Made by a program: the position numbers and the translations under genes. DNA of 64,000 nt from Atractiella rhizophila (lineage: Eukaryota). The stretch covers positions 62,001 through 126,000 of the forward strand of contig MU271191.1 of assembly GCA_021432655.1 (NCBI GenBank). Direction: 5' to 3'. The notes under the pieces were generated by a model. It was not told where the DNA came from. It saw nothing but the letters and a program-made list of their open reading frames with translations, and did not search any database. Below are positions 32,947-58,691 of the stretch, piece by piece (the stretch's first letter is position 1; every line of letters starts with the position of its first letter).

Positions 32947-32948
32947 TA

Positions 32949-34815
32949 CCAGTGTATCAGTGCCCTCGTGGGCATCCCCCCCGCCAGGGGCTTCATCCCT
33001 TGGACCCAGCCTCCGGCCGCCACTGCCTGGAGCTCTTGCCGCTGGCAGTCACTGCGTGGGGCCTCGCCTTTGGGGAGCACATATGGACATGGGTTTTGGT
33101 ATGAATCTATACGATTTCATTATAGGTCTACATGCATGCAATTGTGAAAATTCAAAACTTCTCTGTACACTGTATTTTCCATCCTCTCATTCTCTATCCT
33201 TTGCACTTGGTGTAAATAAACTCGAAGATTCTTAGCATTCAAAACTCTAGAAAGTCCCACATAAAGTTGTCCATGCGCAAAATCTGGTGTGTCCAAATAC
33301 AATCCAACAGTCTCCACCGACTGGCCTTGTGACTTGTTGATGGTGAGACAGAAAGCCAATTTGACAGGGAATTGAAACTGGTATAAGGTAAATGGGAATG
33401 AATTGGAGACCTTGCTATCCAATGCAATGCATGGGGTGAGGACTGAGGTGCCTGTGGATCCACCTGTCATTGATGGTAGCCTCAATGACATGGGAGAGCA
33501 GCTGGGTGATAGCTGGGTGATGGTCAACCGTGTACCATTACAAAGCCCAGCTGAAGGATTGAGGTTTCGTATTAGGATGATAGGGGCTCCAACTTTGAGA
33601 TGAAGACGATGAAGGGGGAGACCCATCATATGGAGAGTATTCAGGTATTCAACTGTGAAGCCTTGTTGAATGCTCTCACTGTCGTCCATCAATCGCTCAG
33701 CACAAAGGTAGATACGTTCCTGTTGGGAGACAAATTGTCAAATAAGCTGATCGTTTATCATGTCAACATCAACATTCCAGGCCGTGAGGACCATGTGCTC
33801 TTGAAAGTATTGCCTCAACTCAACTGGGTTGACATCTTGCGTTATGGTGCGCAGTCCAGGGTATATGTCAGTCGGGAGATTGTCCAGACCATGGGTCGCC
33901 GGACTATTGTTTGGTCCTTCATAGTCAATGGACCACAGCCACAGTCTTCTGGGTTATCTGTTGCGCAATTACCAACTGACAACAACCATTCAGCAAAGCC
34001 AGGGGCAATAGCAAAGTCTCAGCTACTCATTTCGGCCTGACGACGGAGCAGGCGCATACTTACTGTGAGTGGGAGGACTCGAACTGCTGGCCAAAAGGGA
34101 CTGTTGATGACACATGCATCAACGATCTGCACACGTGAAGCTTTGGGGATGACTGAGAGGCATCGTCACATGTCGCCTAATTATTTATCAGACATGAACT
34201 CTTTGACTTGATATGCTTACCACCAAGAACCAAAATAACTCCACCGAAAGGCACATCCACCTTACGTATATCTCTCAGCATCCGGTCAACTGCTCCAAAG
34301 CACCATCGATGACTCATTCCCACTTCGTCACAAATATTAATTCTGGCTCTCGACAAAGTCAATCATGATCACTTTGAGCCATAACACCGCAGACAGAATC
34401 AGCTTCAATGTTCAATGGGATCTGGAAGCGAGTATGGGCTATTCGTCCACCTTCCAGCAGAATAGCGGCAATACCGGAAGAGGCTACTGCCAGCACAATT
34501 TTCCCCGCTAAACGTACCCTGGCAAGTAATAGGTTTTCAACAAAAGTCTTTCCAGTTCCTCCTGGGCCATCGATAAAAATAATCCACCATTTCCACTTTG
34601 CCATGCTTCTACAACCTTGTCATAAGAGTGACTTTGGTCCAGATTTAATAACAGTAACTCTGTCTGAATACCTGCGTGAAGTAGTGGTCGATCATATGCA
34701 AGTTCTTCTCCAATAATCCTTGTCTTGCCTCCCCATCTTTGTAGTCACTCTGCGGGTTGTAGTAGTCCAAAGTTACTTAGGGATTTACCATGAGCCTAGA
34801 GGAGATCTTCAGCTT
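32949..34815 (-). mobile_element. Helitron H1, 3' portion (Pif1 helicase to terminus)
   Basis: FIDGPGGTGKTF, VASSGIAA.LL.GGR.AH, DEVGM, RNLNP..GLCNGTRL, QFPVKLAF.LTINKSQGQ, HGQLYVGLSRV. Terminal hairpin then CTGG|T at 32949. Collinear with H3. Confidence 0.93.
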
Positions 34816-35367
34816 CATCTTTGACAACGCCGAGGGTAGGAAGATGGACAACCTAAAACAGGTGCCACCTCCATCGAATCGGGATGTCCTTCCTTCCATC
34901 ACTGACACAACTGTTGTACGATCTTTGCACCCTTTAACACATCTTTTAGCAGCTCTCCAATGGCTCCCCGCGAACCCACATTCTCCCATCTCCTCAAGCC
35001 GAACAGGGTCTCCTCCCCAAGGCTGTTGTGGCCAAGTGTATCCCCTTGAGCTTTGTTTCACAGGTCCTGAGAGGTGTACTCTTCATCGTCAGTATTGATT
35101 GGAAGCTTGACATCACATTCCGCACGTGTGATGGCTGCTAGAAGGCATTTCGTAGTGGTTTGGACAAGCATATCACTGTCGTTTGTATGGGAATTGGCAT
35201 GTAAGAGAGTCAGTACTCCGTCTATGACGAACATGCCGAGTACATTGAGGTTAGTGAGACAGTGGTCGTTGATAACCATAGCTTTGAGCTCATCTATCAT
35301 CCTGTCAGAAGGCGACATGGCCAAAAGAAAGAGTCTTAGAATCGGATGCCAGTGGAGCGAGAGAGCC

Positions 35368-38012
35368 AGTGGACGAGATTAAAGAGTATTTAGATGCACG
35401 GTATGTTGGTGCTTCGGAAGGTTCGTTTCATCCATTCTCCAAAAGTTGACAGTTAAGTAGTGCTATTATTCATAGCGCGCTGGTGGATTTTCCACTTCAA
35501 GCTTCATGATCACTCTCCAACTGTGATTCGACTGAGCATTCATCTTCCAAATCAACAGATGGTCATTTTTAATGTAGAAGATGATCAACCTGAAGATATA
35601 CTTTCAAGGAGAAACATTGGGAAAACAATGCTTAACGAATTTTTTCAATTTTGCCGTGACTCTCCCCAGGTCTCCCGATTGTGGACCTATCCTCGAGCCC
35701 CTTGACATTTGGTCTGGCAGAGTAATTCAAAGTGCCGGAAGATACGTGAGAAAGGCGATGCTATTGGTCAGATATATTATATTGGTCACAAGGGGAGCTC
35801 TTTTATCTTCGACTACTTCTTCATAAGATCCCAAGTCTTAAATCTTTTGAAGATGTTCGTACAATTGATGGTCAAGCTCACGAAACATTCAAAGCAGCCT
35901 GTGTGGCGTCAGGTCTACTGGAAAGTGAGGAAGAATGGGATCTGTGTCTGGAAGATGCCAACGCAATCAACCGAGGATCAGCAATCCGTTCTCTTTTTGT
36001 CTATATTGTGGGCTTTGGAGTTGCCAGCGAACCATTGCAACTGTTTCGGAGACACTATGACAAGCTCAATGACGATTGTGCACATCTTCTGCAAACAGTT
36101 TATGGAATCGCTGCACCTTCTGAAGACCAGTTCCGAGACTTATGCCTTATCGAGCTGGAGGATCTGCTACATGGTCTAGGCAAGACGCTAGAGGAGTATA
36201 GGCTGCCATTACCTGCTCACAGGTTTGGACGATGGGGAGTAGAGACAAGAAAAATTGGAGAAGAGCTGGCATACAACGTTATAGAGTTGGAGCAACATCT
36301 TGATAAGGATCTTCCTCTTATGAATGAGGATCAACGACATGCATACGATACAATCATCGAAGCCTGGCAGAGTGACACCGAAGGACTCTTCTTTCTTGAT
36401 GGGCCTGGAGGACCTGGAAAGACTTTTGGTCAGAATCTTATACTGGCAAGAGTAAGATCGTCCAAGAAGATTGCACTGGCAGTAGCCTCTTCTGGAATTG
36501 CTGCTATTCTGCTTGAAGGTGGTCGTACTGCTCATATACGATTCAAGATTCCCCTCAATGCAGATGCTCAATCAGTTTGTGGTATTTCGGCTCAAAGTGA
36601 TCATGGAAGGCTATATGTCAAGGCAGAAATTATCCTGTGGGATGAAGCGATTATGACTGATCGCCTCTCCGTCAGCTGCGTGGATCGGTTGGGACAGGAC
36701 CTTAAAAAGGATTCAAGACCATTTGGAGGAACACTTATGGTTTTCTGTGGTATGATACTTCCCTTTAAGTAGTTCTTTATTGACATACTGTTCACAGGAG
36801 ATGGCAGACAGTGTCTTCCGGTAGTGCCAAATGGAAGCCGAGCTCAGATTGTGGATGCCTGCATCATTAATTCTTACTTCTGGCTGAATGTTCAAGTCCT
36901 GCCTTTGAAAACCAATATGCGCCTTCTTCGAGGCCAACAGGAAATGGCACCAGCCGAATTTCAGGGTGCAACCAGATTTGCCCAGTGGCTCCTTGATGTT
37001 GGAAATGGTCTCATTGATGATCCATCAGGCAATGGATGTGGAGCCGTAATGATACCAGATGGATCTATTATTCCATCCCACAAAGGACTAGATGGTCTGT
37101 TGTGCTCAATTTACCGACAAATAGATTCGCTGTGAAATATCCCTCCTCTGAGCTTCCTTTAAGAATACTTCTGGGTTCGCATGATTCTAGCAGCAAAAAA
37201 TGTGGATGTGGATGGCATCAATGATCACTTGATTCAGTGGCTCGAACCCACAGGAGATCGGGTATATTACAGTGCAGATCAAATTATAGATGACGAGGGA
37301 GATCTCAGAAATCGCTTCTCGGTCGAGTACCTGAATACCCTGGAGATCTCTGGATTCCCTTCGCATCGTTTACACCTCAAGACCGGTGCACCCATCATTC
37401 TTCTGCAAGATCTCAATCCATCTACTGGTCTGTGCAATGGCACATGCCTCATAGTCACTCAGCGTCTCCAGCGAGTCATCAAAGCAACCATCATTACAGG
37501 TGCACACAGTGGCAAATCAGTTCTCATTCCTCGAATCGGCATTGACAGTGTAGTATCAAACCAGCTTCCTTTCCAATTCCGGTGCTTTCAATTCCCTGTG
37601 TGCTTAGCATTTGCCTTAACTCTGAATAAAGCACAAGGACAATCTGTAGGACATGTGGGTTTGTACTTAGAGTCTTCTCCTTTCTCTCATGGGCAGCTTT
37701 ATGTTGGTCGCGAACAATTTACGAGTATTGGTTAAAACAAAGCAAGGAGAGGAAAACAGCAAACAGATAATGTAGTTTACAAAGAAGTGTTACGAGTACT
37801 CAATCATTGATCATCTCTCAGCATGTTCCTAACAGTATAGTCAAAAGCTGACACTCAGCTTTTCATTGTTTTTTGAAGACAGTAGAGTACATATGGTGAG
37901 TCTGTGCTTGCCGAAGGCGAGGCCCCACACAGTGCCTGCTGGAGGCTGGGGTCCAAGGGGCGAAGCCACTGGCGGGTTGGATATCCGAGGGACGAGGGCC
38001 CTGACACACTTG
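35368..38012 (+). mobile_element. Helitron H2, 5'-truncated (end of Rep, Pif1 helicase, terminus)
   Basis: DEIKEYLDARYVGASE, RLSIHLP, FLDGPGGPGKT, WDEAIM, PFGG....GD.RQCLPV, GLCNGT, KAQGQS, HGQLYV. Intron positions shared with H3. Ends GAGGGACGAGGGCCCTGACACACTTG|T at 38012. Confidence 0.95.
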
Positions 38013-39499
38013 TACTCTAAAAAGACGCTTGAAGCCGTCCGCCAGGAGTCATTACCCGGCACGCTCCATCGTCTATATCGTCCTCTCGACTTCCTATGAA
38101 GGATGCGGCAATTGGGGATAGATATAGAACCTTCGCCGTTTCAAGGTACGAATCAAACCCAGTTGTTTCAACAGAGATGCGCATGTACGAGGGAAGAATG
38201 CAGTTCATTCTGCTGCGCGATGTACGGTGTTGGAAGCAGCAAGAGTAACTTCCTCTGCACGTCTTTCGTCCTATCATCATCGACAACACACATGAGTCAG
38301 TAAGGAAAACAATTTTTCGTCTTTCAAATTGGCTTTGCTGTATACAGTTCGAAGGGTGCCAGCATGCATATTCTTGTGGTATGCTCAGAATTTTGAAAGG
38401 GGTGTGCAGGCGGTGATAAGGGCTCAAAAGTACACGAATGAGTCATGGTCAAACCCATCATGCTTTTTAGATCAGGATTGCCCCACGTGATGAAATGGCC
38501 GAGCTGCTCTGGTCGAGGTATATTAATGAGGAGAGTTTTTTCATTTATTCCATCCCAATCGTCATATGAATAGTATCGTTACAGGCCAAGGGCCACGCCA
38601 AGAAGGAAAGATGGGACGAATTGCAGAGCACATCCGAGTCCATGATCGACGTCAGACCTGATGGGATCGGGAATCTTGAGGGCCGATATTATAGGCTGTT
38701 GGCTACACTATCCAGAGGCTCTACCAAGTCTTTTTTTATTCTTTCCGATCCAAAATGACATATTTGAACATTCTGATGACAGGGAAGCAGTGAACATGAT
38801 GGTCAGGTTAGAGGAACTACGAGAAGACGCCGTTGAGGTATTGGGCTTCATCGCATCCGGCACAAACGCGGCGTTCTCAAAGGATGTCCGCTATCGCCTT
38901 TTTTTGTTCATTCTGCTCTCACTTGAGGTGAAGGATGAGAAACTATGGGGTCGCTGGTTTGTATTCCTTAGTTGATATTGCAAGTACTAATATATCCAAT
39001 TTTAAACAGGGATGACGCTACAATGTTTTGTTCAGGAGAGTTTGTTCGTTTCAAATATTGTTCCGACGTTGTTAAAGGTTTCTATTGACTATGTTAGTTT
39101 CCATGGCCCTCTTCTGGTATCTGACGGAGCGTTCAGTCAGAGTCCAGAAAGGTTGACGGTGACCTCCTTCGGGTTGAGCAGAATGAGAAAATAAACTTCT
39201 GCACGACTTTCCCCTTTGCAGTCGAATGGATAGCTCAGGTCATCAGTGAAAGGGAGGTCCTCAAGAAAATAGACCGAGGTACTGCACGTGCTTCGATTCG
39301 TATCGTGAGACTAAATCGTGTCCTGGATGCCCAAACGGAGAAAGAAACGGAAAACAAACTCTTTTTCCTTCGCTGTCTGTTTCTATTTTGCTTTGCTGAG
39401 TCCAGTGTAAGTATCTGGGCGATTTCATAGATCCATCTGGAGGAGTCGGTCTCCCACCTTCCCCGATACGGAACCCGAAATCCCGCAAGACGAAGGATC

Positions 39500-40610
39500 C
39501 AAATGAGCGTCTGTGACTAGTGCTCGAACTATGCGACTTGGAGATCATTGAGCCCAGCTCCGATGAACCAGAGTCAGTTTATATCCTGGACCAGGATTGG
39601 CTGGTGAAGACCAATCACCCTATGGCGGATCCAGAATGGATTCCAGAAAATGGTGATCGATTACCGTTGGAAGCTTCAGTAATTTTTGTTCTTGTACATT
39701 TTGCATCACAAATAATCTAACTCAATCTACAGATCGCTAGTGAACATTTCAACATGTTCGATGATGACCTTAATTGGGATGCGATAGATGCAATATTGTC
39801 AACCCTGGATTTACTTGCCCCCATAGTTCGGCACAAAGCGCAAGCCAATACCTCTCGGGGGTGCATGAGCGGATTTTCTGGCCAATGTGCAGCTCAGGTA
39901 CGGAGGAGTGTTGGAAATTTTGCCCTCAAGATCAGTGGGCTTGGCAAGGTGAGCAGGTTCAGCGCATCGGATCTAGTCCAGTAAGATTCCTGATCCCCTG
40001 CATGTAGAGGCTTCGTGAAAATATCGACTATGAAGACCTCATAGAATCTAAGCTTGCGGAAGGGGTTAGAAGAGACAGATGTAAGCTGGAGCTGGCAGAT
40101 ACCAATAGTGGTGCGTCAACGTCCATGCATCTGCAGTTGCTCAAACGTATTCAGTGGCTGGATGCCGCCTCTTGACCTTGATGGAAAAGGTTGTTCCCGA
40201 AATCTATTACGACTGGAGCATGTCCAACCTGGAACATCCTTCGAAAGCAAATCTCCAATTTCTCCCTGTCACTCAGTACTGCGCTAGTGCCTATGTGGGA
40301 CCATCTCATGTCGACAAAATTGATCGCAACTTCACATACAACCACAATGCATTCAATGAAGAACGCGAGACGTACCCTTTGGCAAACTCAATATTCTTTC
40401 CGGCATTGAACATGAGTTCGAGTCCTCAAGGGCGTACAACTGACAATGTCTGTCCAGCTTGTCCTCACAACGCCTGGCCCATATTACGGCCATAGTCACG
40501 AAGTCGATGGGGAACCTCTTTTCCGGCCAGCTATGGGAATAGTTACATTAGCGAGTAGCACGGTCAGAAAAGAGCTTAGCAAAGGCAACGTGGAACACGA
40601 GATCTAGCGC
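39500..40610 (+). pseudogene. Putative TET/JBP-like 2OG-Fe(II) dioxygenase, frameshifted
   Basis: RGCMSGF.G....RSVG.F, then YCASAYVGPSHVDKID (HxD), IFFPALN, and after a frameshift VRVLKGVQLTMSVQLVL-TT...FRPAMGIV. This motif order fits fungal Tet-like oxygenases, but the distal His is not seen intact. Recognised by eye only. Confidence 0.5.
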
Positions 40611-43600
40611 CACGTTGGTTGGAACGCAAAATCCTTGGAGAAATTAACTGCAACAGCGAGAGCAAGAACGACGAAGTACATCTGACGGCGCTGGGCAAAC
40701 ATGCGGGAGGCAGCGTGAAGTCAGGGACGCGATTTATCGCGAAAAATCCTAATTCATAAGGTTTGAGTTCCCATCATGTGACTAGTAACATGGCGTTTCT
40801 CAAAACAAACCAATCACTTAAAAGCGCGTACCTCATGTGAATTAGGAGTGCGAGGGGGATAGCTTCATTGTGAACAAGCATACGCTGTTAAATGACCTTT
40901 TTCAGAGGCCAGGATTTGAGTGCAACCATTGCCACCATTCCATGCTCCTGGTCTAGAGTTTGCACAGAGGGTCTAGAGAATGTGTTGTTGAGGATTATAT
41001 TACTGCTGTAACTTCAATTCTGCTTTTAGATTTCTACCGTTATCCTTCCCTTTTGTTTTCCTTTAACTTGATATCCGTGTTAGGGATGGTTTTATGCAAC
41101 CAGAGAGGCTGCAAGCGAAAAAGGGTTTAGCACTTCAATATCTTCAATTTTAAGAACATTTGTGGTCAACAAACTTGGTCAAAACTGGACGACATCGCCA
41201 ACCAACTCCCGTCCCTCTGGTGATGGGTCTGCCATCACTCATCTGTTACTGCAATCAATTATGCCAATGCTGGTCCAGTTAGCTACGAGGAGGGTTGGAG
41301 GACAGAGAATCTCAGATTGGAGGTAGACGACGGGAATGATGGAGCGCCTCATGCAGGGGTTAGTTGATGATGATGAGATCAGCTTTCTGTGACTGTAGGG
41401 GTCATGAAGCTCTTCTCCGATGATTGGTAGTTACAGGCTTTCGAGATGTTGTAAAGTATGACCATCCTACTCCTATCCTATCTGCTACAGGTCCTACATA
41501 ACTCCCAATTGCCTTGTAATGGTGGGGTGTCATTCGTTTACTTGAACGGCTTAGAGGCCGTATCGAGTGTGTCACCCAAACCTCTGAAAACTTACCATGC
41601 AACCCCTCCGGTCGTCTCATTTGCGGACTGCAACAGGAGCGTGTAGCCTCACTGATGTATCTCACTCTCTCCGCCTAGATACTTGGTTCTTCAGATCTCT
41701 CAGCCCTCCACTCCCATCGGCAAACTAGTCGTCCAGGGTTTTACTCAAAGGGTTTTGCGACACAACTCAGGAAGAAGAGCAGGTAGAAAATCACTTCCAA
41801 CTGTCTTGTGTGCCAAGGTGGACATACCAAGTGTTGATAAATTTAAGACTCACAGGCCTGGAGACTCTTTCTCCAATCGTGCAAGACGCTTCAAGTTGAC
41901 ACTAAACACACAAAACTCAGGAACAGTCCGATATCTTGCTCTCTTTGACAGTGTGAGAAACATGCAGCGAGTGTTCGCCGATGCAGACAACGCTGGGTTC
42001 CCAGAAAGTTCTCAAGACTCTATCTACCCCACATCCCAAAGATGCATCAACCCTCTCAGGTTTCCCAGTTGTACGTATTGAAGAATTAAAAATTAGCATT
42101 GGCTTTATACGCCAAAGTTCAGCGCTCAAAACCTGAAAAATAGTAAAGTGAAATGTGGGAACTTTGAAGAGACACAAAAAAAAAGAATATAATCAAACGA
42201 CAAGTAAATCATCAAATAATACTGCACCATCGACCAACACCGTCCCCCAGAATGCAATAGCAGACTGTAACAACTTCGCAAAGCAGCATGCCATTCACAG
42301 AAAGCAACAAGGTAACCCATAAAAATCATGAGGATGTCAGGATTTCCACAGAAAGTGAGGAAAAGGTGCCAGTTGGTCCTGTGGAAGTGCAGATGCAGCA
42401 TGATCGTAAGGGATAGCAGTCTGGACCTATGGTGTTTGCCCTGGAGATAGATCTTGAGAAGGGGGCGGCTGGAACTGCTGGTGACTGGGGTTCAGAGGGA
42501 GAAAGTGTGGCGAAGGGAAGGAATATGGAGACTGGATTGCGTGAGTAAGTTGCTGTTGAGGAGGGTAATCAGAAAGTGGCACCGGAGCAGCAGAAGCAGG
42601 GTCTGTCAGTGGTGTTTCGGCTGGCGTTACTTCCACTCCAACAGGAAAAGGTTGTCAGAAAGGTCCTGATTCTACGTTTTCGACCATTTCAACGGACCCT
42701 CCAACTCTCGCCTTAGAGCCACCTTGGTCACTGTCGGAAAGAAGAGTCTCAAGACGTCCACAGACTGATTTTAAGACCTAAACAATTGTTTAATCCAGCT
42801 GTAAGTGAAGGGAAAGAGTGATCGCAAACCTCCACAAAAGATGTATAACTATTGGAGTTTCTTAATGCACCCGGATCCTCTGACACTGACGATTACTTTT
42901 AAATCTCCCAAGAGAGATAAACTCACCCTATTCTTCACCTGTACACTCGCTAGCAACAATTTGATTGCTGTTGCCGCTTGCTTAACCAAATGATTGAGAT
43001 TCTGCCCAGGAGTTCGATCTGGTACGAAAATGTCCTGTGAAAGAAGTAGCATCCTTCTTTCTCTTCGAGTATTAACGGGTGGACCCCATTTTCAATTGAT
43101 TTGAAGACGTCGGTCAAAAGAACGACGGTTGCAGGGAAGGCATTTTGGTACACTTGCCTGTTTTGTGATGCAATCAACAAACACACTGAGTTGAAGGACG
43201 AAGCTTACACAACGTGTGATAATGTTTCTGATGTGTGATTTGTACACGGTGTTAAGAGAAAGATTGCCGCAAGTGAACGCCCACCTCGCAGCTTAAAAAC
43301 TGAACAGACTACAACGCTTGCCTATCTGATGCACTGATCCTTGGAGTATCCATGCTGCAGTCGTGAACACTTGAAGAAAGGAAAAAAAGGTCGATGGAGC
43401 TTCATCACTAGATAGTGTATCTATTTACCCATTCCTGCCAGTCTGTATCCACAGTCAGACACCAAAAGTAAAGCAAGAACCATGTCTTGAGATCCGTCTG
43501 TAATATCTGTCAGGGTCGCCCTCCATAAACAGGTAATGAAGAACGTACGTTTCTGGCAATGAAGAACAGGAGACTGATATGATTTTGTAAATTTGTGAGC

Positions 43601-45277
43601 TTCGACGGGAGATGGCTCAATATGTCCTGATATTGCTGCGTGACCGCAGTGACATCAATAACCCCAATCAGCAAGACAAGGAAGGAAGTGGGTGTGCCAT
43701 ATATCATCGAGCGAAAGAATGACTTTGTATCCTGGTCCCTTGCTTGATGCACAAAGGGCATTTTCGTGCGTCCTTTGCATCATTCTCGCCGCTGCCAGCA
43801 TCAGGCGCTCGTAACTCACATCGCCGAGAACTTCAGGGGGTTGTCGAGAAACTGATGAAGACATGAGGGAGAGAGTTGTCATTCACATTCATTGGAGGCT
43901 CAGAGGCGACTAGGCACGGGTTTATGAGGTAAGCTCGATCGGCCATCGTCGTTGACATCCAATTCAGCTTTTTATCTCTCAGCACAAAGGGTAAAGGTGA
44001 AGCAAAATAACCACTGACGAAGCGTACAATCCCAAAGATTCGAAGCGCCAATTGGAGTTTCAGTGAGTTCCTTCCCCATGGAAGAGCAGGATTGTCAGGT
44101 GGCATTTTCTGCTCGGAACATCAAGCTTGATGAGGAACGGTGAGAGAACAAACGCACATTCTCGTCCTCGCCTAACCTGTGTAGTGTTAACAGCTGAAAA
44201 ATATGGATGGCAGTTCCCAAGAGGGATAGAGCAAATGTATCCGTACAAGTGGGTGTGCCAATAGTTTGCAAATTCCAGCAAAAGAGAATAATGGTTCTGC
44301 AGAAGCGTCTAGCAGTCTCACTCAACCCATATGGACACTCACTGGATAGTTCGTATTCATGGCTGTTCTTGGTACTTTCCAAGCACCAGACAGCGCTGAC
44401 AGCACATCACTTGGCCTTCTGTTGAACCTCTTCGCGTGAAAGTTCAGAAAACCCTCCAGACCACGTGATTTCACCAGTCCCGCTTGCATTCTGTTTGATA
44501 AGATCTGGAAAAAAAGAGCTAGCCATAGCAGATCGATACAGGTCTGAGGAAGATCTTTGCCAGGTGGTGATTGGAGGACAGTGCTGAGAATAAAACCAGT
44601 TGACTTCAGAAATGAAAGGTGGGAAATGGATGCAACGGGTGTGTCCAATCTGGCTATGTGGACCGCTGTTTGTCAAAAATACACTTTGTTTGAGGAGGGG
44701 AAGAGACTTTACATGGTTGTAAAACTTTGTAGGTCATCAATGTAAGCAGGTGTAGCTCTTGAGACAAGACATATCTTATCAAGGATCCAATCCCTCTCAT
44801 CTACCCCAGGGACAAGATTTATCATGCCAAGAACTTCTTCTCTCATAGCCTGCTCAAGTGGTTCTGCTCTAGCATGCCAGATACTAGTGCCCCATTCTGT
44901 TCTCTCCTGTAGAGCTGAGGGAGACTGCAAGGCTGGAGGTTGGAAACATGTGAAGGTCATTCCAGTGTGTTCTTAGCTTTACCCTCCATTTAGGGATCAA
45001 TCTCCATGAAGACGAAGACAATAAGTGACCTTTCCTTGATGACACAGCATCAGTGCACATGCAAATTAAAAGCCAGGACAAATACCACAATATTTTCCAC
45101 TACCTCCCGTGGATAAGTTATGGCTTGCAATTTGAGGGCTGTAGAATGGTTCCCATGCCTTATATAAGAATGTGTAGGGTGGACAAGCCGTCAAGAGGGT
45201 TGATGCAACTCCTGTATGGACTTGCCTGTTGGTAAACAACCATTTACATATTTAAGCAGCTCTACACTGTGGATGCC

Positions 45278-45575
45278 TTCATATGAGAGATCATTTCCTT
45301 TCTCAACACTTTCGTACGAGAGCTTATTCACTTGCTCGATATTTTCGTACGAGAGCTTATTCACTAGAATAACCTGTGCTTCTGCAAAGAGAGGGCATAA
45401 CCTTTCATGCAAGACAATATAACCTTCCATACGAGAAAAATACCCTTTCGTACGAGAGGGCATAACCTTTCGTAACAGAGAAATAATCTTTCATACAAGA
45501 CGACATAACCTTCCCCAGGACTGCAGAGTGGATAACTATCATTTCATATGAGAAGACATACCCTTTCGTACGAGA
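45278..45575. repeat. Array of about 10 TTCGTACGAGA-like motifs with palindromic core TCGTACGA
   Basis: Exact copies at about 45311, 45344, 45447 and 45565. Variants TTCATATGAGA, TTCATACAAGA, TCCATACGAGA. Spacing 33 bp, then mostly 21-22 bp. Confidence 0.85.
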
Positions 45576-48221
45576 AACGTAAAGTCGTTCAAGGGGTTGA
45601 GTGCGAGAGGCTGAACAAAATTGTGGCCTGATGGTGTGGCCAAGTTGAAAATGAGAGTAAATGGGGTTTAAAAGCACCTTGCCACCCCCAAACACTCTGT
45701 AAGACCTGTCGGATCTAGCAAGGTGAAGAAACAAAACATGGACTTCCTGAACCATCCCCAAACAGTCTGGAAGGATCCAATAACTGGGGCGGACACGATG
45801 GAACCCCTTCGGGATCGAGAATCGAAGCTCTCCAGTCGTCAATAAAACATGTGAAGTGAAGTGGTGGCCCCTTGGGTCAGCATAAGCATGGAAAGCACAG
45901 ACAATCTTCTGCTTGAGTGGGGATTATTTTGCCGACAAAGACCCTGTCTGAACTTCTTTCTGTTCGAGGAAGTCGTTCCGGTCTGGGATGGACCAAAACT
46001 TCAGTCATACCGGTCGCCATTGTGAGAGGAACACAAAAAAATGCTTGTCAGAAGAAACAAACTATTCACTACCAAATACAAGAGAAAGGGAATAACGCGA
46101 CTGAAGAAAGTGAAGATTGTCCAGCCCTAAACGATGGCACATTCACACCCGCAGCCTACAGCTTCCAACAACTTTGACTTACTCTTAGACACCATAGTTA
46201 CAGTTCAACGTTCATGCTGCCATCTTGCTTGAGCGGTAATTGTTCTTGAACTAACTTTGTGTTGTCGTTCATTGTTTCTCCTGATTGTTCACTTGCTCCT
46301 TGTTCTTGTGTTTTCACTTTATTACCACTTTACTCTTGCGTGAATATTCTAGAATCCTGGTTTGATGAGTCTATAAAGTGTGTAAGATTCACATCCTGCA
46401 AGGCAACAGGTTATAACACAACTCAGCACCAGAGTACGAAACATACTATGTATCAACAAAACCAATCTCCTACTAGTGGCTATCACAAGGGACAGGAGAT
46501 GGAGATAGATATGGGGAATGGCAGTAAAAAGAGTGCATAGTGGAAGGCAATTGTGGTTCTGACCTTGTCCCTCTCTTGCGTCTTCCGACCTTCTGTCGTT
46601 CCAAGCCTTCCCTCAAACCTATAGCGTTTTCCATGCTCCTGGATCAAGTGGACTCCGCCCATTTCTCCTCGCTACAGTATTTGATATCTCCTCTCCGTCC
46701 TCTCCTTCTTCAGGTGGAGTGGGAGCCATCAACACGTCTGGATCTACCTCCTCAGCAGGACACTGCAAACGACAATGCTGGACCGGCTTCCAAGTTCAAG
46801 GAGTATGGTGATACTGTCAGGACTTTGCAAGTGGGAATGATGAAAATTCGTGCTGAGGCCTTGCAAGCAGGAAAGATGTTCAGCAATGATCTGAAAGGTT
46901 AATGGTCTCAGCTGGAGGCAAAGGATTGGAAGTACACGACGAAAAAACCTGCTTCGCATATAGCTTGACTCAAATGAAGGTCACAAGTTCTGGTGAAGAA
47001 CAGGGGATTGGCTGCGAAACAGGTTTTGAGGTGTTGGTTGGATTAGGCAATCATTGATGGTGAATTCAAAACGCGAACATGGCAGGAAGGTGCAAAAATA
47101 GGTTCACTGTAATTCCTTGATAAGCGGCGGGTGATGACGTGGTGATAATAGACAAGCAATCGAAAGGACAAGGATGGGTTTGGTGTGCTCTAAAGAGCTT
47201 GGAGTGAAGATGAGGGAGGCTTTGAGTGTTTTCCTGGTAAGTTGTCCTTATTGGAGTCGAAGAAGAGGCTGAACTGGACGAAATAAAAGCTGTCAAGCAG
47301 CCTGGAAGGGTAAACAGCAGAAGAGATGTGAGATCGGGAAAAGGAAAGGATTCAGGATTCAATCGTGGACAGAGAGAGTGGTGACCGGGACGGCATTCTA
47401 CCTGAGGAAGAGAAAGCCATGTGGCCTGGAAGATATGGCAGCTAGCTTCATGTAGAAACAATCGACTTATATAACCTGTGTCCTCCCATTTTGTTGACAC
47501 CTGTTCCTCCTCCAGACTCTTGACCTTTCTCAACACTTCCGGATATGGGTTCTAGAACAAGTTTCGCCCCCTCTTACTACTACCAAATAGAATGGTATGT
47601 CCTTGTATCTTAGAAAGAGCTTGTGCAGCTTCTGGCCTTAAAGAACCATTTTGCAAGATTGGTCACATCTCCACTGATCCACCAGTGGCATTGCCTGGTG
47701 TTTCTTTTGCTTACTAATCTGCTTGATGGACTTGCAAAGTCCATCCCAGTTTTAACACCAACGACTCAGAATTAAGGAGGAGGAAGCAGGGCAGCATGGG
47801 ATTGAGGAAAGTGTCGTCGATCCTTCCTTTTCTTTCACCATGGGTTGGGTCCGTCAAACTCCTCTCTCCTGCCTTCTATCCTCACGTACTTTCTGTGGGC
47901 CAATTGGTATGTTGACGCCATAATCCTCAGCAAGCTCAGCTGCTACACTCGTAGGTCCCCTTTCTCTTCCATCAATCCTTCGAACCAGAGTTGGCCGATA
48001 CCACTTCACTTCACCTCCTGATACCATGTGCTTCACCTCCTGATAAAACCATGTACCTCACTGGTGAATGAAGTGAGGTGAAGCTGATTTGGAGAAAGAG
48101 GTGGTATTGGAAGGGGGTGAAGTGTAGCTCGGTCCAGAGACTATGATAAACTGCAATATTTCTGTTCTCTGCTGCGGTACCACCAACTTCTCTCTGTGAG
48201 TGCCAAGCAATACCTTGGCAG

Positions 48222-51200
48222 TAGGGATGGCTGTCGTCCCGTTTGCGGCCGGCGCAGATTTGGACGGACGGAGTGATGTTCTTGTCGTCCTCGTCCCGTC
48301 CCGTCCCACCGGCCTCGAAAAGGGGGTTGGGCGACTTGAAGGACGGGACGGTCAAGGACGAAGTGACGGTTCAGGACGAGTGCAAAATGATTATATTGAT
48401 TGAGAGCCAGAATATGTAAATACCTTTGAAGATCCGATGTGCTCAACTTACTGTGTATTCCCCATGCCCAATGCCTTTTCCATCTCTCGCTTCAGCTCAG
48501 CAATCCTCTTCTCACGGTCCATCCTCAGTGAAACCTTGAGAAACATGAGGGCTCAAATAGATTCAGGATCTAAGCGAGCTCTTCAGATTCCAATGGTATC
48601 ACGAGCACCAGAGAAAAGGCGCTCTACTGCCACCGCACTCCCTATACTCGCCATCAACAAGCTACCCAAAGCTGCCATGAGATTACTTTCCTGGCATGGA
48701 AAGGATATCCCGTGCCATACGAGAAAGGTTGGGAAGATTCTTGTGCGATTCTTCTTTCCAGAATAGAAGCGGATTGACGGCCCAGTCAAGTTGCTTATGT
48801 TCAAAAAGATAATCGAGTTCTTTTTTGAGCCAAGTCTTCAGGTTGACCGGCGCTGCCTTGAGACCTCATTAAATCGGCTGCCAGGTTGACGCGTTTCCTC
48901 TTCCTTGAGTTTGTTGAACCTTGCTGTTCATCTTGAGCATCTGATGCGACAATGGAAGGAGTTGGTGCTCTGAAATACTCTCTCCGAAACAGAGCCGCAA
49001 AGTTGTCTTTGTGCCTCTCAATCTCTTTTCGGTCTGCATTGGAGAATACAGGCAGCTCAAAATACTTGATACCCATCCGTGGGTCTAGAACTGACAATGA
49101 GGCAAATCTGAGCATCAAGAACGATTTATTGACAGAAGGGAGGACTCACGTATAGAATAAACAGGGTACGGAGAGGCATCTGATTTAAGGTGCCAAGTTG
49201 CAAGCTTGTCATAAGCATCAACGAGTGCTCCACGGTATTTCGTATCAAGGGAGATAGGGAATTCCCGTATAGAGGTTTCAAGATGTTGGAGCAAACCGTG
49301 GAACACACCGAGAGTTTGCGCAGGAGTTCTTCGTCATAGACATGTCGTACGTTGCATTGCGGAAAACCTCGAGCCACTTGGTTGCCTGCTCCAAGTTGGC
49401 AATTATCAGAGAATACAACACTTGTGAGATAACTAATCATACCAGTTCAATCCCATTCCAGTCCTCTTCCGACAATGCAAGCGACTCAAGGTCATGACGA
49501 TCCACATATGCCTTCAAAGCTTCCCGGCACCTAACAGCCAGATCAAGCATGTCATGCGTAGACCCCCATCGAGTCCGCACATCGAGAATCGGCATTCTCA
49601 ACGTCTCATCGGACATGTTCTCGATAGTCTCAATAGCATCTTCCAGTAGTTGCAACCAGCTCTTCCGTCGTTGTGAGGAACTACGTAGGTGCTTGATGAT
49701 CGCCCTGAGCTAGAATATCCATATTTTCTATTACTTTGCGGCTGAGACAGTGAGGAGGAGGCGAACCTTTGGTATAGCACCTTTGAGTTTCACCATAACA
49801 GCATCATCCGACTCCCCAGTCAACTCTTCTTCACCTAGCTGACTCGCATCCCCTTCCTCTGCCGCGGTCGTAACACACTCTTGATAAATAACACCAGGAC
49901 TCTTCGCCTCCTTTGGCCAGACGTCAAGGGTTTCAAGGAGTGCGATGGCAGCGAGATGAATGACATGTGGCATGCAATTGAGATGGCGTTCGTATGCGCT
50001 GAAATAGATCCCCCTCTTGGCAAGATGACTTGTGACGCCTTCCGCAAGCGTTTTGTTGTTACTCGCACCATCCGTCATCAGGATTCCGAGCTAAGTGTGA
50101 AGGAAAGTTGAGTGACAGCAGGACACAGGAAGCCAGGGAAAGGAACAAACCATGTGTGCAATATGATAGCGATCCAAGCACTTCAGGACAACATCTGCCA
50201 TGTTGTCCCCAGTGTGGCTACCGAGAAGCTCTGAGAAGTCGAGGCAAATTTCTTCCAGTTCCCAATCATCATTGATAAATGACCAACAATGGCAAGGAAA
50301 GAGTAGAAGGAAGGAGTCAATGTCCAGGCATCCAACGACAGGTGAACTTTTGTTTTCATACGCTACCCCGAATTCAAACTGATTAACTGATATGTGAGAA
50401 GCAATAGGTAAACTGACTTACACGTAAACTCGTTCCAAGCTCATCCATCCTCTGCTCCGACATCTTCATAATTCTCTCCTTCATAACCTTTCGACTTGGA
50501 AACTCTAACTTATCTCCTTCACGCCTTTCTGATCCACGGAAGCCACAGGACTTTGAGTACTCGCATCAGTTGTAACATCTTTCAGCGTTGATCGAGTCCA
50601 ATGAACATAGTAGATCAACTCTATGAACTCAGGATTTTCGGTCAGAGAGAAAGCTTGGTCCGTGGACACGATAAACTTTTGAAGGAGGTCGTCAAACACG
50701 CGTTGATCAAACTGCTGTAAATACACGCACACCGTTCAATCGCAGGAGCACTTAGAATCAGACCAAAAACCAACCTGTGACCCGTACTGCCGTTTTAAGC
50801 GCTTTAGAATATCATCTAAGCGCTCAGTTTGAAGTAGTGCAGTTTTGCCATCCGAGTCTGTGATCTGAAAAGGCAACTCAGTACCCAAACACTACGTCAA
50901 AGCGAGGACAACATACCTTAATTCTTCCAGCTGCCTTATCAACATCCTCTTGCGTAATCTCCAAGTCATTGTCCTTTTTGGCTTTGAGAAGATCATAAAA
51001 CTGCACAAGAGACTTGCGATGGTTGGAGAGATTGTGAAGATGTTTAACAAGTCCCTTGTAGTTGGAATTACTCGCTTTGGAGACACGGAGAATGTTGGTG
51101 CAATGGCTGCATTGATAATACCTATCGCCCTCTTGATGTCATGCGCGAACTGCTGCACTTGCACGGTTGACTGTGGTCTGCTTGTAGAAATAAAGGATCA

Positions 51201-52794
51201 ATGATCGCGAAATTGTCGGCTGACACCAAACAACATATCATGATAAGAGAAAAAGAGGATAGGAATGAGTTTTGAAGGCAAGAAACACACTGTATCTGTT
51301 GGCACGTCTTGGTGCACTGTCGCTTTGAGCGAAGAAATGGCAACACCACCTTCTCCGTTCGATCCTTGCTCGACACCTCTGGCAACCTATATGGTGTAAG
51401 TAAGGATGAAGGAAATAAGTGGAACGAGGACTAACCTTTCGCCGCTTCTTGTTTCTTCGCTGTGGCACCTGTTTCTTTTGTAGATTGTCCGCCACCTCGT
51501 CATTATCAATCTCTCTCGCCTGGGGTTCTGCTTCAAGGTCCAGCATGACCACATCTGAGTCTTCAGATTTGTCCTGAAAGACGGTGTCTTCTCTGATATG
51601 GTTCACCAGACCTTCGGCAGCTAAAGCCGCATGAACATGCTGTGCAGCGGAACAGACATAACCCTTCCGGGCATCAAGCAGAACTTTGGGGACTACCTCT
51701 GAAGCATTTAGCTTCAGCAAGCCGTCCCACAGAGTACGAAGGGCTTTGATGCCTTGTTGGAAACCGGTATCGACGGCTGTTGGTCGCCAACCGGAGAATG
51801 CCGAGTGAAATGGGTCTTCGTCATCTTCAGCCGTGGATTCAAGGTGGTGAAGAAGTGAAGTTGCCTTCTTAAAGAGTGCCGAATCCACCTGAAGCCCACC
51901 AACCTTGGTTAGTGCCAAATAACATTGGTTGAAAATGTAAAATGAAAGCCATCCGCCATTGTAAGGATAAACTTACGTGGTTGTGGTGCTTTTTCATATT
52001 CTGAGGCGCTAAGAAGAAGCTGCAGATGCTCGTAGCCAGGAATGTTAGACAGCCTGTCTCGTCAATCACATTAGTACGAGCATCTCAGGCTACGAACGAA
52101 AGATCCTTACACGGCCTTTTGTTCCTTTCTTTTGAGTTTGTGACTGAGAGCATTGTTATCCTCATTGTTCCTCTTCACCATATCAATGAGAGTCCGCTGC
52201 CGCGACGGCCTGCCATTGGGTTCAGCCATTTTATGGCAGCTTCGATTGAGGGAGTTGTCAAAGATGGAAGGAGAGGCGCTTATATGAGCCAAAGAGCACT
52301 CGGACGAGGCTTGGGTGCATTGCAGTAGTTACACGAACAATACATCTAAAGAACATGATCAGCTTGGATCAGGGAAAGAAAAAGTGCTCACACATGGAGT
52401 CAGACTTGAAACTAACACGGGCAACGAGAGGGACTTTCCAACCTTCCAGGGCACGTAGCAGCTCTTGCACACCGTGAATAAGGTGTGCTCGGCCTGCAAG
52501 GAGCAATTCCACCTCAAACTCACAGAACCTGAAGCAGGAACCAAAGACCACGTACCTTCTGACACAGCTCAACAAGCCCGAGTTCATTTACCCATACCAA
52601 AATCGCTCCCCCCCTATAAACCAGACCGTCCTACCGGAAGCCGTCGTCCACGCTATTCTGGGACGGACGGGATGATGCTCACCTCGTCCTCGTCATCGTC
52701 CAACTGGTCGTCTTTCGTTTTGGTGGACGGACGGAGTCCGGCACCGTCACCGGACACCGTCCAGCCGGTATTGCCGGCACGATAGCCATCCCTA
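48222..52794 (-). mobile_element. hAT DNA transposon, family A, copy 2 (defective)
   Basis: TIRs TAGGGATGGCTGTCGTCCCG (48222) and CGGCACGATAGCCATCCCTA (ends 52794); TSD CTTGGCAG / CTTGGAAG (7/8). Transposase collinear with 8398-12180, with several frameshifts. Confidence 0.95.
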
Positions 52795-53100
52795 CTTGGA
52801 AGCAACGATCAGGAACGGCGATGATGATGATATCTTTGAGAATCAAGTCGATAACGCAGTGGAGCTTCGTGGCCAAATAACGTTTTATAACACCGTCATT
52901 CAAATCCTCCAACACAGGACTCACATCTTTTCCATCTATATTGGTAGAGAAACAGCGCACCTCATTTGTCATTCTCCTGTTGGCACTGTTGTCACCCTTC
53001 CATTTAATTACAATAAGGAACCTTATCTTATCTTCATTGCAACCCTGTCGAGACAGAAAATGCGGTGGACTGCCTTGACCTTGGGGCTGATGATCCACTG
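52795..53100 (+). pseudogene. Fungal-type protein kinase (FunK1/Pkinase_fungal), N-terminal segment
   Basis: RGQITFY......QHRTHIFSIYI...AHLI......VVT.PFNY matches the FunK1 N-terminal pattern. Confidence 0.7.
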
Positions 53101-53768
53101 TACGTTGTCAAATTCGGTTCAACAAGCTACTACATCTCAAAACCTTTTGTGAGACTCTACTGCAAAAACAAGTTCCTTTAGCTCGACTAAAGCGAGAAAT
53201 ACGATGCTCGATCAATAAATAAGAGCTTAAACGAAAAGGAGAGACAGGAACCAGCTTATGTTAGCCGCACTGAAGTGTCAGGCCACTTATCAAGCTATTT
53301 GGTCTCAGAACAGAGAATGGATCTCACAGAAGCGCTTCTAAGGCCAAGGGAACTTACCTCAATTCTTACCGCACTTTCCGCTGTGAGGGCAGAGTAAGAT
53401 GATGAGGAATAAGACGAATTTTACATTAACAAGTGAGGCCATTTTTATAGGCCAATGAATGGACAAAGATCAGACAACATCGCGGGAAAACCTGTAATAC
53501 ATGAGTAGATAGAAATATAGAATGATCAAAGAGCATGGGACGGAGAGGAAGGTGAAGGGAATCAAATGAGTCTCACCAAGGAATTGACAGATCTCGCCTT
53601 CCAGCTTCTGGGTAAGGCAAAGATATCATGCAGTTATCTTTCCTTCTGCTCCTGGTCGACCGTACATGCTTGGAGCTGACAGGAGAGGTGTAGAGAGACG
53701 GCTGGGAGTTGTGAAGTAATCAGTGGTCAATGGGACTCCAAGTTAGGCAGGGGCCTTTTCCAGAATAG

Positions 53769-56700
53769 TAGGGCTTTGCACCGTCACCGTCAAGACGGCT
53801 GACGGGTCCGGGGCGGACGGCTTTTGTAGCCACCCGTCCCGTCACCGTCGCAGACTTCCAACTCTCAAGACGGACGGGGAAAACGGACGGCAGAATCCCG
53901 TCCGTCTGCTGTGAGCATCCTTCTGAAGACGGTTCTGACGGGTGAAACGGCTGGAATAGGCTGGAAGCAAGCAGGGCTGGATGGTCAATGAGTGGTCCGC
54001 TTTCCATTCCAAGCATTCCAGACGTTCTATGAGCTCAAGAAGGCTTGCAAGACACATTCTTAGGTTCTACGACGCCATCGCACCCCTGGCCCCAAGCTCA
54101 ACATACAGCTCCCTTGTTCACTTTTGCCAGTTCTCACCCGCACTCCCACCTACGCCCACGTCTTCATATCGTCTTCCGCTGCAATCACCACGATTCACGT
54201 TGGTTCATGCTTGTCAGAGCAGCGACTGTTAGATGTTTTCAATAGTTTACAAGGTGTGTCCCTTGGTTCTTTGATGGCCTGGAGGTTTGTTGTGAGCGCT
54301 GCCACCACACATTCACCTTTGGAGCAAGCTCTCAGACATTTGAGTGAGGCGGAGCTTGTCCTGTATAAAAAGCAGGCCGCCTGTTGAAAGCTTTCCAATC
54401 AGCAAAATGGCAGAGAATAGTCCCCATATTCGTAAAAGCACTCGTGCTAGGAAATCTGTTGACTTGTCCGCTAGGAACAACGAAAATGGGACAGCCTTAT
54501 CGCAGCAAAATCAGAAGATTGCCGTGCATACAAGGTATGTCTGTTTTCAAGCACCAATTTAATATTTTCAACTAACAGATATATAAGGCTTTTGAGGGAT
54601 GCAAAGAGAAATGGATACTCCGCTACGAAGTATCTCTTGTCTGAAGGAGACAACCTTGGCAAGAGCTTGTTGGATTTTACCGTATGTTTGTTGTGATATG
54701 TATACGAGTCACTGATGTCCAGCTCAGGATGACAATGCCACCGTACCGATTGTCTCTCGGCTCCTCCTCAATATTGTTACAAAAACGACCGCGGACGACA
54801 ACCAGCCTCTAGATGATGATGATGAATTTGTCCAGTTCGGCAAGAAAAGCAAGGAGTTCACGATGGATGACATCGGTGGCTCCGCTGGAATCAGAATCTT
54901 CAACAAGCTCTGGTCTTCAGTATGGAACCAACTGGGACACTTTCCAGTCATCTCTGAGCAGCGTCTATGCCATCTGCTCACGGTTGGAGCAACTCTCACG
55001 CAAGTGCTCATTCAGGCCGGGCAGCTTGATGATCCCCTGCAAGATGCCCAAGATTTGGACTACCTTCCTTCCGAACTGGAGGAGAGGCTGAGCGTTGAGC
55101 CGGAGGAGATTAGCGATGAAGGAGAGAGGGAGATGAATGTCGCTACTGCTGATGTGTTAAAGGAGATGGAAGGGGGATGACAGGAAGGGAAAGACAAGGA
55201 GTCAGAGAAAGAGGGAGAAGGGATGGGAGAAGAGAAAGAAGCAAAAGGGGGTGACTGCTGAAGCAGTAGAGGTGAACAGTCCTTCTATTGTCTCATCGAT
55301 CTTTGACTGAGAGAATCTGGTGATAGGTGTGTCCAGATCATGAACATTCGTCTATCGACGAAGAGTCGAATGTGGATGGGAAACGGAAGGTGTGCTATCT
55401 TTTCTTTCTCTGCTGGCAACTAAGCACTGAGGCTATGTCAAGGCACACAGAGAGCCGCAGTCGCAACTCGAGGGAAAGCGACTATCAAATTTTGTTATGA
55501 GGAGATCCAAAATCACTCGCAGCTTTCAAAGAAGAGTCTCTTGCTCAGCTTCGGTGACTCTGCGAAGCTTCAGCCTGGCAACCGCGTCTTCGAGTGTCAC
55601 AAATGCAAGCGGCTTCTTCGTCAAACTCCTGCACAAAAGCACAATTATGATGGTCTCATCAGGCACTGGTCCAGTCACGGTTCGGCTTATCAGGTGTGTT
55701 TCATACACCTTAGCAAGGTTAAGCCTGGTGACCACTTCAACGAGCATGATTTATCATTTGCGAAGGGGAATATGGCTCCGGGAGAGTATAACCGGGAGAG
55801 GAGAGTCAAGAGTCCTGTTCCTGCGTGGGCACAACCGAGGAATGTCGGGTCAAAGATGACTCGCAACAGTAATGAAGTATTGGACTTGCGTTCACAAGTG
55901 TTTTGAAGAAGTGCTGATTTCTGTTGTGGAAATAGCCGGTTGACCCAGAACGACTGAGTACCTTTTCTCTCGCTGGACCGCATCCTCTGCCCAACCCTTC
56001 ACTGAAGTCGACTGTCATGAACTCCGTGATTTGCTCACATATCTTCATGGGACTCCTCTGTCAATTCCGAGCTCTTCGACCATCCGAAGAACTACGTTCG
56101 ACTGTGCAGAGAACCTCTTAACAAATCTTTCGCTTTTTTTCAAGGTAACTTCTTCATATTTCTAGACACTCAGTCCTAAGAACCGAACACTAGTATCATA
56201 TCAGTGACTGTGAGGTTGCCCTGTCTCTTGACAACTGGACATCAGGTAACCTTATCGCTTTTCATGCGGTCTGCGCGCACTTCGTCAATAAGCAAGGGAA
56301 CCTTGTCAACGCTCTGCTCGATTTTGTAGAGCTCAAGGGGAAGCATGGAGGAGAAAGGATGGCGAAGGTGGTTTATGCGGTCTTAAAGAAGCATGGATTG
56401 TTAGGGAAGGTACACTTTCCTCTCATTCCTGTTCTGGCCGTACATCAATGAGTTTTGTGATAGATCTCTATCATAATGTCGGATAACACCACTTCAAATG
56501 ATACGATGATGACAGAGCTTGAAGACCTTTTCAAGCATGATGGGTACAACTTTCCTGCGATCGAACGGCGAGGCAGATGTCTTCCGCACATCGTCCATCT
56601 AGCTGCATTGTCACTGTTGAATGCAATTGGTGCATGGCCTGTGACAACGAAAGCTGGCAACAAAGTCGCTTCCAGAAATGCTCAGGATGCTCCACTAAAC

Positions 56701-58683: not shown

Positions 58684-58691
58684 CAGAATAG

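Follow-up and report, generated by a model that had tools for sequence, protein, structure and literature searches.

A decayed member of a small gene family with a probable divergent TET/JBP-like domain lies beside a Helitron terminus in the fungus Atractiella rhizophila

We analysed a stretch of 64,000 nucleotides (nt) of Atractiella rhizophila (assembly GCA_021432655.1, contig MU271191.1, positions 62,001 to 126,000; hereafter the window, to which all coordinates refer), in which a first-pass annotation had placed a candidate TET/JBP-like DNA dioxygenase directly downstream of a Helitron, H2, as its possible cargo. Our reading is that 38494-40718 is a decayed member of a small Atractiella family with a divergent TET/JBP domain that is not shown to be Helitron-borne, and we give this reading as a whole a probability of roughly 0.6. 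Observed directly is that 38494-40718 is one spliced gene on the plus strand and a decayed copy of a small dispersed family. The gene has a probable start ATG at 38494 and a natural stop codon (TGA) at 40716-40718, both read from the sequence, and its parts are as follows (P numbers denote predicted proteins of the family).

38494-40718, plus strand: TET/JBP-like family pseudogene, to which P0002, P0004, P0005, P0007 and P0008 map (38585-40715).
38582-39678, plus strand: N-terminal region of about 300 residues, aligning to P0004, P0005 and P0008 and interrupted by the premature TGA at 39514-39516.
39733-40604, plus strand: TET/JBP-like dioxygenase domain, in exons 39733-39948, 40008-40110, 40155-40411 and 40458 onward.
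39679-39732, 39949-40007, 40111-40154 and 40412-40457, plus strand: introns of the domain region, with GT..AG ends, the last one beginning with AT.
40412-40457, plus strand: intron 4 (46 nt), ATGAGT..ACTGAC..CAG, in which ACTGAC is branch-like and the 5' splice site is AT in this copy.

The intron borders agree with those in the gene models of the paralogues, and the open reading frames (ORFs) form a spliced set, as had been proposed. The motifs quoted at the outset were all found on the plus strand, G-C-M-S-G (the G.M.G motif) at 39859-39873, H-V-D-K-I-D at 40307-40324 and F-F-P-A-L-N at 40394-40411. The frameshift that had been suspected near 40415 is in fact the 46-nt intron 4, which is spliced out in P0002 and P0007, joining FFPAF(D/N) directly to LVL, and which is crossed by a paralogous contig that aligns over 40243-40477 with one gap. 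The exon-like pieces at 38450-39480, for which the first-pass annotation had left the choice between an N-terminal part and a partner gene, belong to the dioxygenase-like gene itself and make up its N-terminal part: P0004 and P0008 extend from these pieces into the domain, and the frame is unbroken over 39430-39678 into intron 1. This N-terminal region matched no Pfam family and is mostly helical, at low confidence, in an AlphaFold model of P0004 (predicted local distance difference test, pLDDT, 43.9).

The window copy is a dead pseudogene. Apart from intron 4, which is without its GT in this copy, it carries the following lesions.

39514-39516, plus strand: premature TGA, where P0005 has Arg.
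40478/40479, plus strand: 57-nt deletion, with loss of 19 residues (in the paralogues GSVHGWRSRDLYHATLLAP), among which is the distal iron-binding His.
40605-40607, plus strand: premature TAG, where P0007 has Tyr (tblastn).
40683-40685, plus strand: premature TGA, read from the sequence.

The 57-nt deletion was seen both in protein alignments with the paralogues and at the level of DNA, where a contig of sequencing run X2 (depth 437.8, about three times single-copy) has 64 letters between 40477 and 40485 and the window has 7. Since the distal His is lost and three premature stops are present, the window copy cannot be the active anti-silencing module that had been envisaged, and because the locus is a dead copy it tells nothing direct about anti-silencing activity.

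The family comprises six gene models (P0001, P0002, P0004, P0005, P0007 and P0008), all of them partial and all from A. rhizophila; several end by running into intron sequence and two sit on short contigs (5.5 and 16.7 kb). A phmmer search with a 128-amino-acid ORF against 1.84 billion representatives yielded three proteins at E<=0.001, namely P0001 (the model of the locus itself), its paralogue P0002 and a bacterial Ig-repeat protein that is spurious, and word-indexed protein searches contributed P0004, P0005, P0007 and P0008. As far as is known at present, the family is recognised only in A. rhizophila (Pucciniomycotina). The deposited model P0001 (528 amino acids, 38096-40492) is a chimera in which a fragment of a patatin-like gene is wrongly fused to the TET-like pseudogene, with artificial introns across a stop codon and across conserved coding sequence. 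A protein-language-model search with this chimera gave no usable feature match and TPR-like structural neighbours at a TM score of at most 0.35 (model pLDDT 0.33), from which nothing was drawn.

Copy numbers were estimated from summed contig depth at >=80% identity in bins of 451 nt, for one sample with two runs (X1 and X2), the single-copy level in run X1 being about 89. The depths in run X1 were as follows.

38657-39107: depth 228, about 2.5 copies.
39108-40460, the gene: depth 434-520, about 5-6 copies.
40461-40911: depth 147, about 1.6 copies.
40912-41362: depth 102, about 1.1 copies.
Helitron bins: depth 2900-14000, about 30-160 copies.

Contig depth therefore suggests that the gene is present in about 5-6 copies per genome.

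We consider it quite likely that the domain of the family (about 270 C-terminal residues) is a divergent TET/JBP 2-oxoglutarate (2OG)/Fe(II) dioxygenase, a call that is probably right and stands on two soft lines only, its neighbours in a protein language model and a motif match made by eye. In a language-model feature search with P0007, the best-preserved paralogue, 23 of the 30 matches belonged to the Tet_JBP (PF12851) set; the top score was 0.95, with 210 of 256 features in common, and shuffled proteins are stated to attain this score in about 1 of 100 cases. Comparison by eye shows that five blocks of the family fit, in order and with nearly the same internal spacing, the PU-type TET domains of Pucciniomycetes DNA transposons that are given in Table S1 of a recent survey (Kojima 2025, PMC12730594).

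Block 1, at the start of the domain: IA..F..[WF]D.
Block 2: G.M.G[IF][GS]..R, then 8-9 residues, then G[RT][YF].
Block 3: P[PS]H.D..D.
Block 4: [FM].FP.F ... G.V..Wx6H.TL.
Block 5: F.R.[GA].[SG] ... RKE..KG.

The candidate HxD iron-binding motif is HVD at 40307-40315 in the window and part of HVDKTD in P0002 and P0007, and it is preceded by P-S, comparable to the P-P-H.D..D of the PU type (PMC12730594). The putative distal iron-binding His, deleted in the window copy, is found in the sequence LYHAT of P0002 and P0007, 54 residues past the first His; in TET/JBP proteins this His (H-x-T/V) is expected about 50-70 residues beyond HxD. A candidate 2OG-binding Arg strand, FRPAMGIV (40521-40544), aligned only by eye to F.R.G.S.Q of the PU type, lies within 22 codons (40509-40574) that P0007 cuts out as an intron, which we think is a prediction error. 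An intact protein would thus have the N-terminal region of about 300 residues followed by the domain of about 270 residues, in which Fe(II) would be bound by HVD together with the downstream H(AT), and 2-oxoglutarate by the Arg on the next strand (FRPAMG), and the intact enzyme may be expected to oxidise a methylated DNA base, most likely 5-methylcytosine (5mC). We infer both the binding of Fe(II) and 2OG and the oxidation of the base from the TET/JBP family.

As a sign of more than chance, a relaxed pattern built from these blocks, H.D..[DE] ... [FILMV].F[PR] ... [WF]x6H.T, matches both of the paralogues that bear the core (2/2), none of 300,000 shuffles of each paralogue and no site among the 127,996 six-frame residues of the window, the pattern having been loosened after the data were seen, which makes it post hoc. 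That the pattern is post hoc is one of several points that weigh against our reading. The block comparison was likewise made with both sets of sequences already seen, and a first pattern with the spacing of the rust domains matched none of the seven proteins tested (0/7), because the stretch from HxD to FFP is 22 residues long in the family vs at least 30 in rusts. No Pfam family was found at E<=10 for P0001, P0002, P0004, P0005 or P0007, and the exon pieces of the window gave weak unrelated families and no Tet_JBP. TET structures have entries in the PDB, and searches of the PDB sequences with the ORF, P0007 and the family profile (phmmer and hmmsearch) returned no TET, the matches being at chance level alone (an arabinofuranosidase, a haemagglutinin and PA3352). 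Structures of NgTET, TET2, CcTET and CMD1 are named in PMC12730594. Mycobacterium phage Cooper gp2 together with seven relatives served as a bridging set of eight TET/JBP proteins from phages: hhalign aligned the family core to them with a probability of 0.12 (E 0.48, 15 columns), and hmmsearch with the hidden Markov model of the phage proteins scored P0007 at -2.0 bits, under about 60 decoy ORFs of the window. PHROGs contained no match for the family. AlphaFold2 models, made with 4-5 near-identical sequences, were too poor for a fold search (pLDDT 40.5 for P0007 and 43.9, as given above, for P0004).

Thus, of the initial TET/JBP-like call the part that stood is the one given by the language-model neighbours and the motif layout, while every alignment-based test was negative. 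Neither a match to a 2OG-Fe(II) profile nor a double-stranded beta-helix fold was obtained (the AlphaFold2 models being too poor to show one), formally the outcome that the first-pass annotation had named as refuting. The Pfam negative is softened by the finding that Cooper gp2, which is named as a member of the family in the legend of Fig. 7 of PMC12730594, itself scores 26.6 bits vs a Pfam Tet_JBP cut-off of 34.9, so that the Pfam model performs weakly on divergent members. Three further searches added little: tblastn with P0007 against 50,697 phage records gave one irrelevant match (E=10), a metagenome scan with P0007 gave 104 pattern matches of which none was confirmed, and a PF12851 search of one phage record and 14 control genomes gave no match anywhere and was for that reason uninformative.

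The negative profile and sequence tests, all pointing the same way, would be explained if the family were not TET/JBP at all and were instead a lineage-specific family with another fold or function, its HxD...H resemblance having arisen by chance and its language-model neighbours being a false lead. The AlphaFold models gave no fold support that would speak against this, and the language-model matches are self-described as leads, a third of shuffled proteins having 10 of their 10 best matches in one family or clan. We regard this explanation as unlikely, however, as chance is stated to yield a score of 0.95 with 210 features in common only rarely, the five blocks follow one another as in the PU type and with near-identical internal spacing (including Wx6H.T and P.H.D..D; PMC12730594), and the combined pattern was absent from all of the shuffles.

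Among the known systems the PU-type TET genes are the most similar in motif layout. They occur in the same subphylum, Pucciniomycotina, and are multi-copy and located in transposon-rich DNA, and by eye their domains show the same order of elements, i.e. IA..F..[WF]D, G.M, P.H.D..D, F.FP.F, Wx6H.T, the R strand and the RKE..KG helix (PMC12730594). There are also clear differences: Atractiella belongs to another class (Atractiellomycetes), the stretch from HxD to FFP is shorter in Atractiella as described above, the N of the F.N..H motif is G in the Atractiella family (PMC12730594), the family has the extra N-terminal region of about 300 residues and no Pfam Tet_JBP match, and the window copy is a pseudogene for which no carrier transposon was found in the scans of the window. 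The TET/JBP genes of Agaricomycetes that are linked to Kyakuja-Dileera-Zisupton (KDZ) transposons, among them the structurally solved CcTET, are also expanded and associated with transposons, and their presumed chemistry, 5mC oxidation, is the same (PMC12730594, section 3.4), whereas our ORF scans revealed no KDZ transposase and the layout of the Atractiella domain resembles the PU type more than the AG type. The phage TET/JBP thymidine/5mC hydroxylases resemble the family in that the nearest language-model clusters are viral Tet_JBP proteins of 262-295 residues and in that the elements N..H.D, a G.L.LP.Y-like strand, H.T and R.S.V.Y are common to both, but no profile similarity to the Atractiella family was detectable, as the hhalign and hmmsearch results above indicate. 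Gene 2 of Cooper-like actinophages, which belongs to the TET/JBP family, is annotated variously, as a queuine tRNA-ribosyltransferase, an oxidoreductase, a thymidine hydroxylase or a hypothetical protein.

If the assignment holds, the family would be a new divergent member of TET/JBP from one more class of Pucciniomycotina, represented in the window by a pseudogene. Transposon-associated fungal TET genes would then reach the Atractiellomycetes, and the family profiles would be missing whole lineages, so that Pfam-based surveys undercount them. The linkage of a fungal TET gene to a Helitron, on which the interest of the first-pass annotation had centred, is by itself not new. TET/JBP genes have been described inside 11 lineages of DNA transposons (Kojima 2025, PMC12730594), including Helitron1 elements (five families of Puccinia graminis, and also in Pezizales) and Helitron2 elements of Agaricomycetes (the Agaricus bisporus and Laccaria bicolor entries of Table S1), i.e. 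for rusts, Pezizales and Agaricomycetes alike. Atractiella is absent from the text and Table S1 of that paper. A search of one literature collection for Atractiella together with TET JBP found no paper, and one joining A. rhizophila with Helitron or methylation found unrelated plant papers only.

With respect to the Helitron, the gene is indeed co-directional with H2, whose 3' terminus is placed at 38013 by three aligned copies. The distance between the two had been overestimated at about 1.5 kb: the gene starts about 0.5 kb past the Helitron end (some 480 nt beyond 38013) and its dioxygenase-like domain about 1.7 kb past it. The elements concerned are the following.

35750-38013, plus strand: 3' part of Helitron H2, a degenerate RepHel helicase in three frames with the terminus ..CTGACACACTTG then T.
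38014-38290, plus strand: orphan patatin-like phospholipase fragment (tblastn of P0006 residues 231-313 to 38048-38290).
40728-40753, plus strand: hairpin CGCGA-TTTA-TCGCG, then 7 nt, then CTAA followed by T, found by script and beginning 10 nt past the stop codon.

The helicase of H2 gives Pfam PIF1/Pif1_2B matches at 35750-36769, 36773-37132 and 37163-37732. Its terminus, also written ..CACACTTG, is common to the copies at 59206 and 32948 (both on the minus strand), and in the alignment of the three copies the homology ends at the same base, which fixes the 3' end of H2 at 38013; the resident Helitron family ends in CTTG. The region 32948-38013 consists of two 5'-truncated Helitrons in a head-to-head arrangement, H1 (minus strand) and H2 (plus strand), that meet near 34800-35300. 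H1 is 81% identical to a third copy, H3 (59206-61080), and H2 is 68% identical to H3 in the helicase and 88% over the last 92 nt.

The patatin fragment begins directly at the Helitron terminus and is thus located between H2 and the gene. P0006 is named FabD/lysophospholipase-like (precomputed PF01734), and no other part of a patatin gene was found in the window. The bin 38206-38656 has a depth of 4020 vs about 89 for single copy, i.e. about 45 times single copy when averaged over the bin; the depth of the patatin stretch is higher still if only 38206-38440 of this bin is counted. The high-copy stretch of which the patatin fragment is part runs to about 38440, where the first window-identical contig starts. 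The stretch 38014-38440 could be a high-copy repeat with a captured gene fragment, or the tail of one Helitron subfamily.

The view of the gene as Helitron cargo is not supported by these data: the gene lies outside the mapped terminus with the patatin fragment in between, the gene is missing downstream of both other Helitron copies in the window, nothing in 38014-48221 is repeated elsewhere in the window according to a self-comparison, and the copy numbers of the gene (about 5-6) and of the Helitron (about 30-160) are tenfold or more apart. The adjacency of gene and Helitron is best read as the result of repeats being packed together in transposon-rich DNA, the family having been spread by some vehicle, if any. 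This part of our reading is weakened in that its evidence comes from depth bins of 451 nt, from one sample and from the Helitron copies within the window. The known case that is most similar in this respect is that of Helitron-2, -3, -12, -13 and -14_PGr of P. graminis (consensus length 12.7-15.4 kb; Table S1 of PMC12730594), which likewise have a Helitron1-type RepHel and, no more than a few kb away, a TET-like gene in the same orientation. In P. graminis, however, the TET gene is inside the consensus of the element, whereas in Atractiella the gene is outside the three-copy terminus and the other Helitron copies of the window are without it.

A Helitron could still have moved the gene by 3'-end bypass, in which replication would read through 38013 and stop at the hairpin and CTAA at 40728-40752, so that the patatin fragment and the TET-like gene would form a new tail spread by the Helitron. 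The gene has the proper orientation and starts about 0.5 kb past the terminus, the high-copy sequence extends beyond 38013 as far as about 38440, the hairpin with CTAA/T is located 10 nt past the stop codon and within the same bin in which the depth of the paralogues falls, and TET-carrying Helitrons exist in other fungi (PMC12730594). Nevertheless we consider such a bypass improbable, since the two other Helitron copies in the window do not continue into the sequence, the numbers of gene and Helitron copies disagree and 38657-39107 reaches only about 2.5 times single copy, and the resident Helitron has CTTG at its end, preceded by a different sequence. Moreover, the stem of the hairpin has only 5 base pairs, and equally loose hairpin+CTRR motifs occur 5 times in the window (both strands) vs a mean of 6.5 in 30 shuffles. 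The second downstream hairpin+CTRR terminus that the first-pass annotation had asked after does have a candidate, at 40728-40753, but this class of motif occurs at chance frequency, and the candidate is probably a weak signature resembling a Helitron 3' end that arose by chance. Similarly slim are the chances of a combined scenario, in which an unrecognised divergent TET/JBP lineage, fused to a helical N-terminal region, would have been captured by read-through of H2 ending at the CTAA 10 nt past the stop codon. If true, it would show in concrete terms how TET genes could pass 'passively' from one transposon superfamily to another, a movement so far unexplained, and it might explain why a CpG-rich gene (observed-to-expected ratio 0.84) is found between depleted flanks (0.54).

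Somewhat less doubtful, and overlapping with our own reading, is that the gene would be relic cargo of another DNA transposon, the transposase of which was lost, was not recognised or lies outside the repeated unit. In rusts, PU-type TET genes are carried by hAT7, IS3EU, Harbinger, EnSpm, ESTA and Dileera elements (PMC12730594), and the PU-like motif layout of the Atractiella domain points to a transposon-borne lineage. In line with this, the family is dispersed and multi-copy, with the partial models and short contigs described above, and 41363-48000 is itself repeated 3-10 times and poor in CpG. What makes us regard it as rather unlikely all the same is that no transposase domain was found within 8 kb downstream, that within 38000-48400 the gene is not flanked by terminal repeats, inverted or direct, and that the depth drops to single copy (102 vs about 89) directly past the gene. 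Among 142 ORFs of at least 60 amino acids in 40600-59300, Pfam revealed no transposase domain besides that of hAT, which is located at 48686-48865 inside a separate hAT copy (48222-52794); this copy, the nearest hAT element, has its end at 48222, and no TET-like sequence adjoins its sister at 7796-12406. A KDZ transposase was likewise absent from the Pfam scans, which covered 42 ORFs from those of at least 110 amino acids across the whole window together with the 142 ORFs just mentioned (ORFs of less than 110 amino acids outside 33000-59300 lay beyond the transposase scans), and which gave Helitron, Copia and hAT domains as well as the weak and unrelated RRM_1 and Bflower.

The base composition of the gene, which we still take to be a decayed family member packed among repeats, differs from what had been described. 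The first-pass annotation had placed it in a CpG-decayed block, which is wrong for the gene itself: 100 CpGs were observed vs 118.7 expected, a ratio of 0.84-0.85, compared with 0.54 for Helitron H2, 0.54 for 40716-48221 and 0.67 for the whole window, and among 310 sliding windows as long as the gene just 4.5% come up to 0.84. The gene stands out as an island of preserved CpG with depleted sequence on either side. This retention of CpG over 38582-40715, with loss in the transposon DNA on both sides, is a small oddity.

Pfam scans of long ORFs characterised the window as a whole as repeat-rich fungal DNA, with the following further elements.

33123-34619 (minus strand), 35750-37732 (plus strand) and 59391-62907 (minus strand): Helitron RepHel remnants (Pfam).
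20003-22993: Copia element (Pfam).
7796-12406 (plus strand) and 48222-52794 (minus strand): two hAT copies that share 78.5% identity over 4.7 kb and both have a hAT dimerisation domain.
57785-58457: third hAT piece.

In addition, 45278-45567 (bin 45422-45872) holds an array of direct repeats of 21-22 nt (ATAACCTTTC.TAC.AGA...) at about 68 times the single-copy depth, which may represent the subterminal repeats of an abundant small element.

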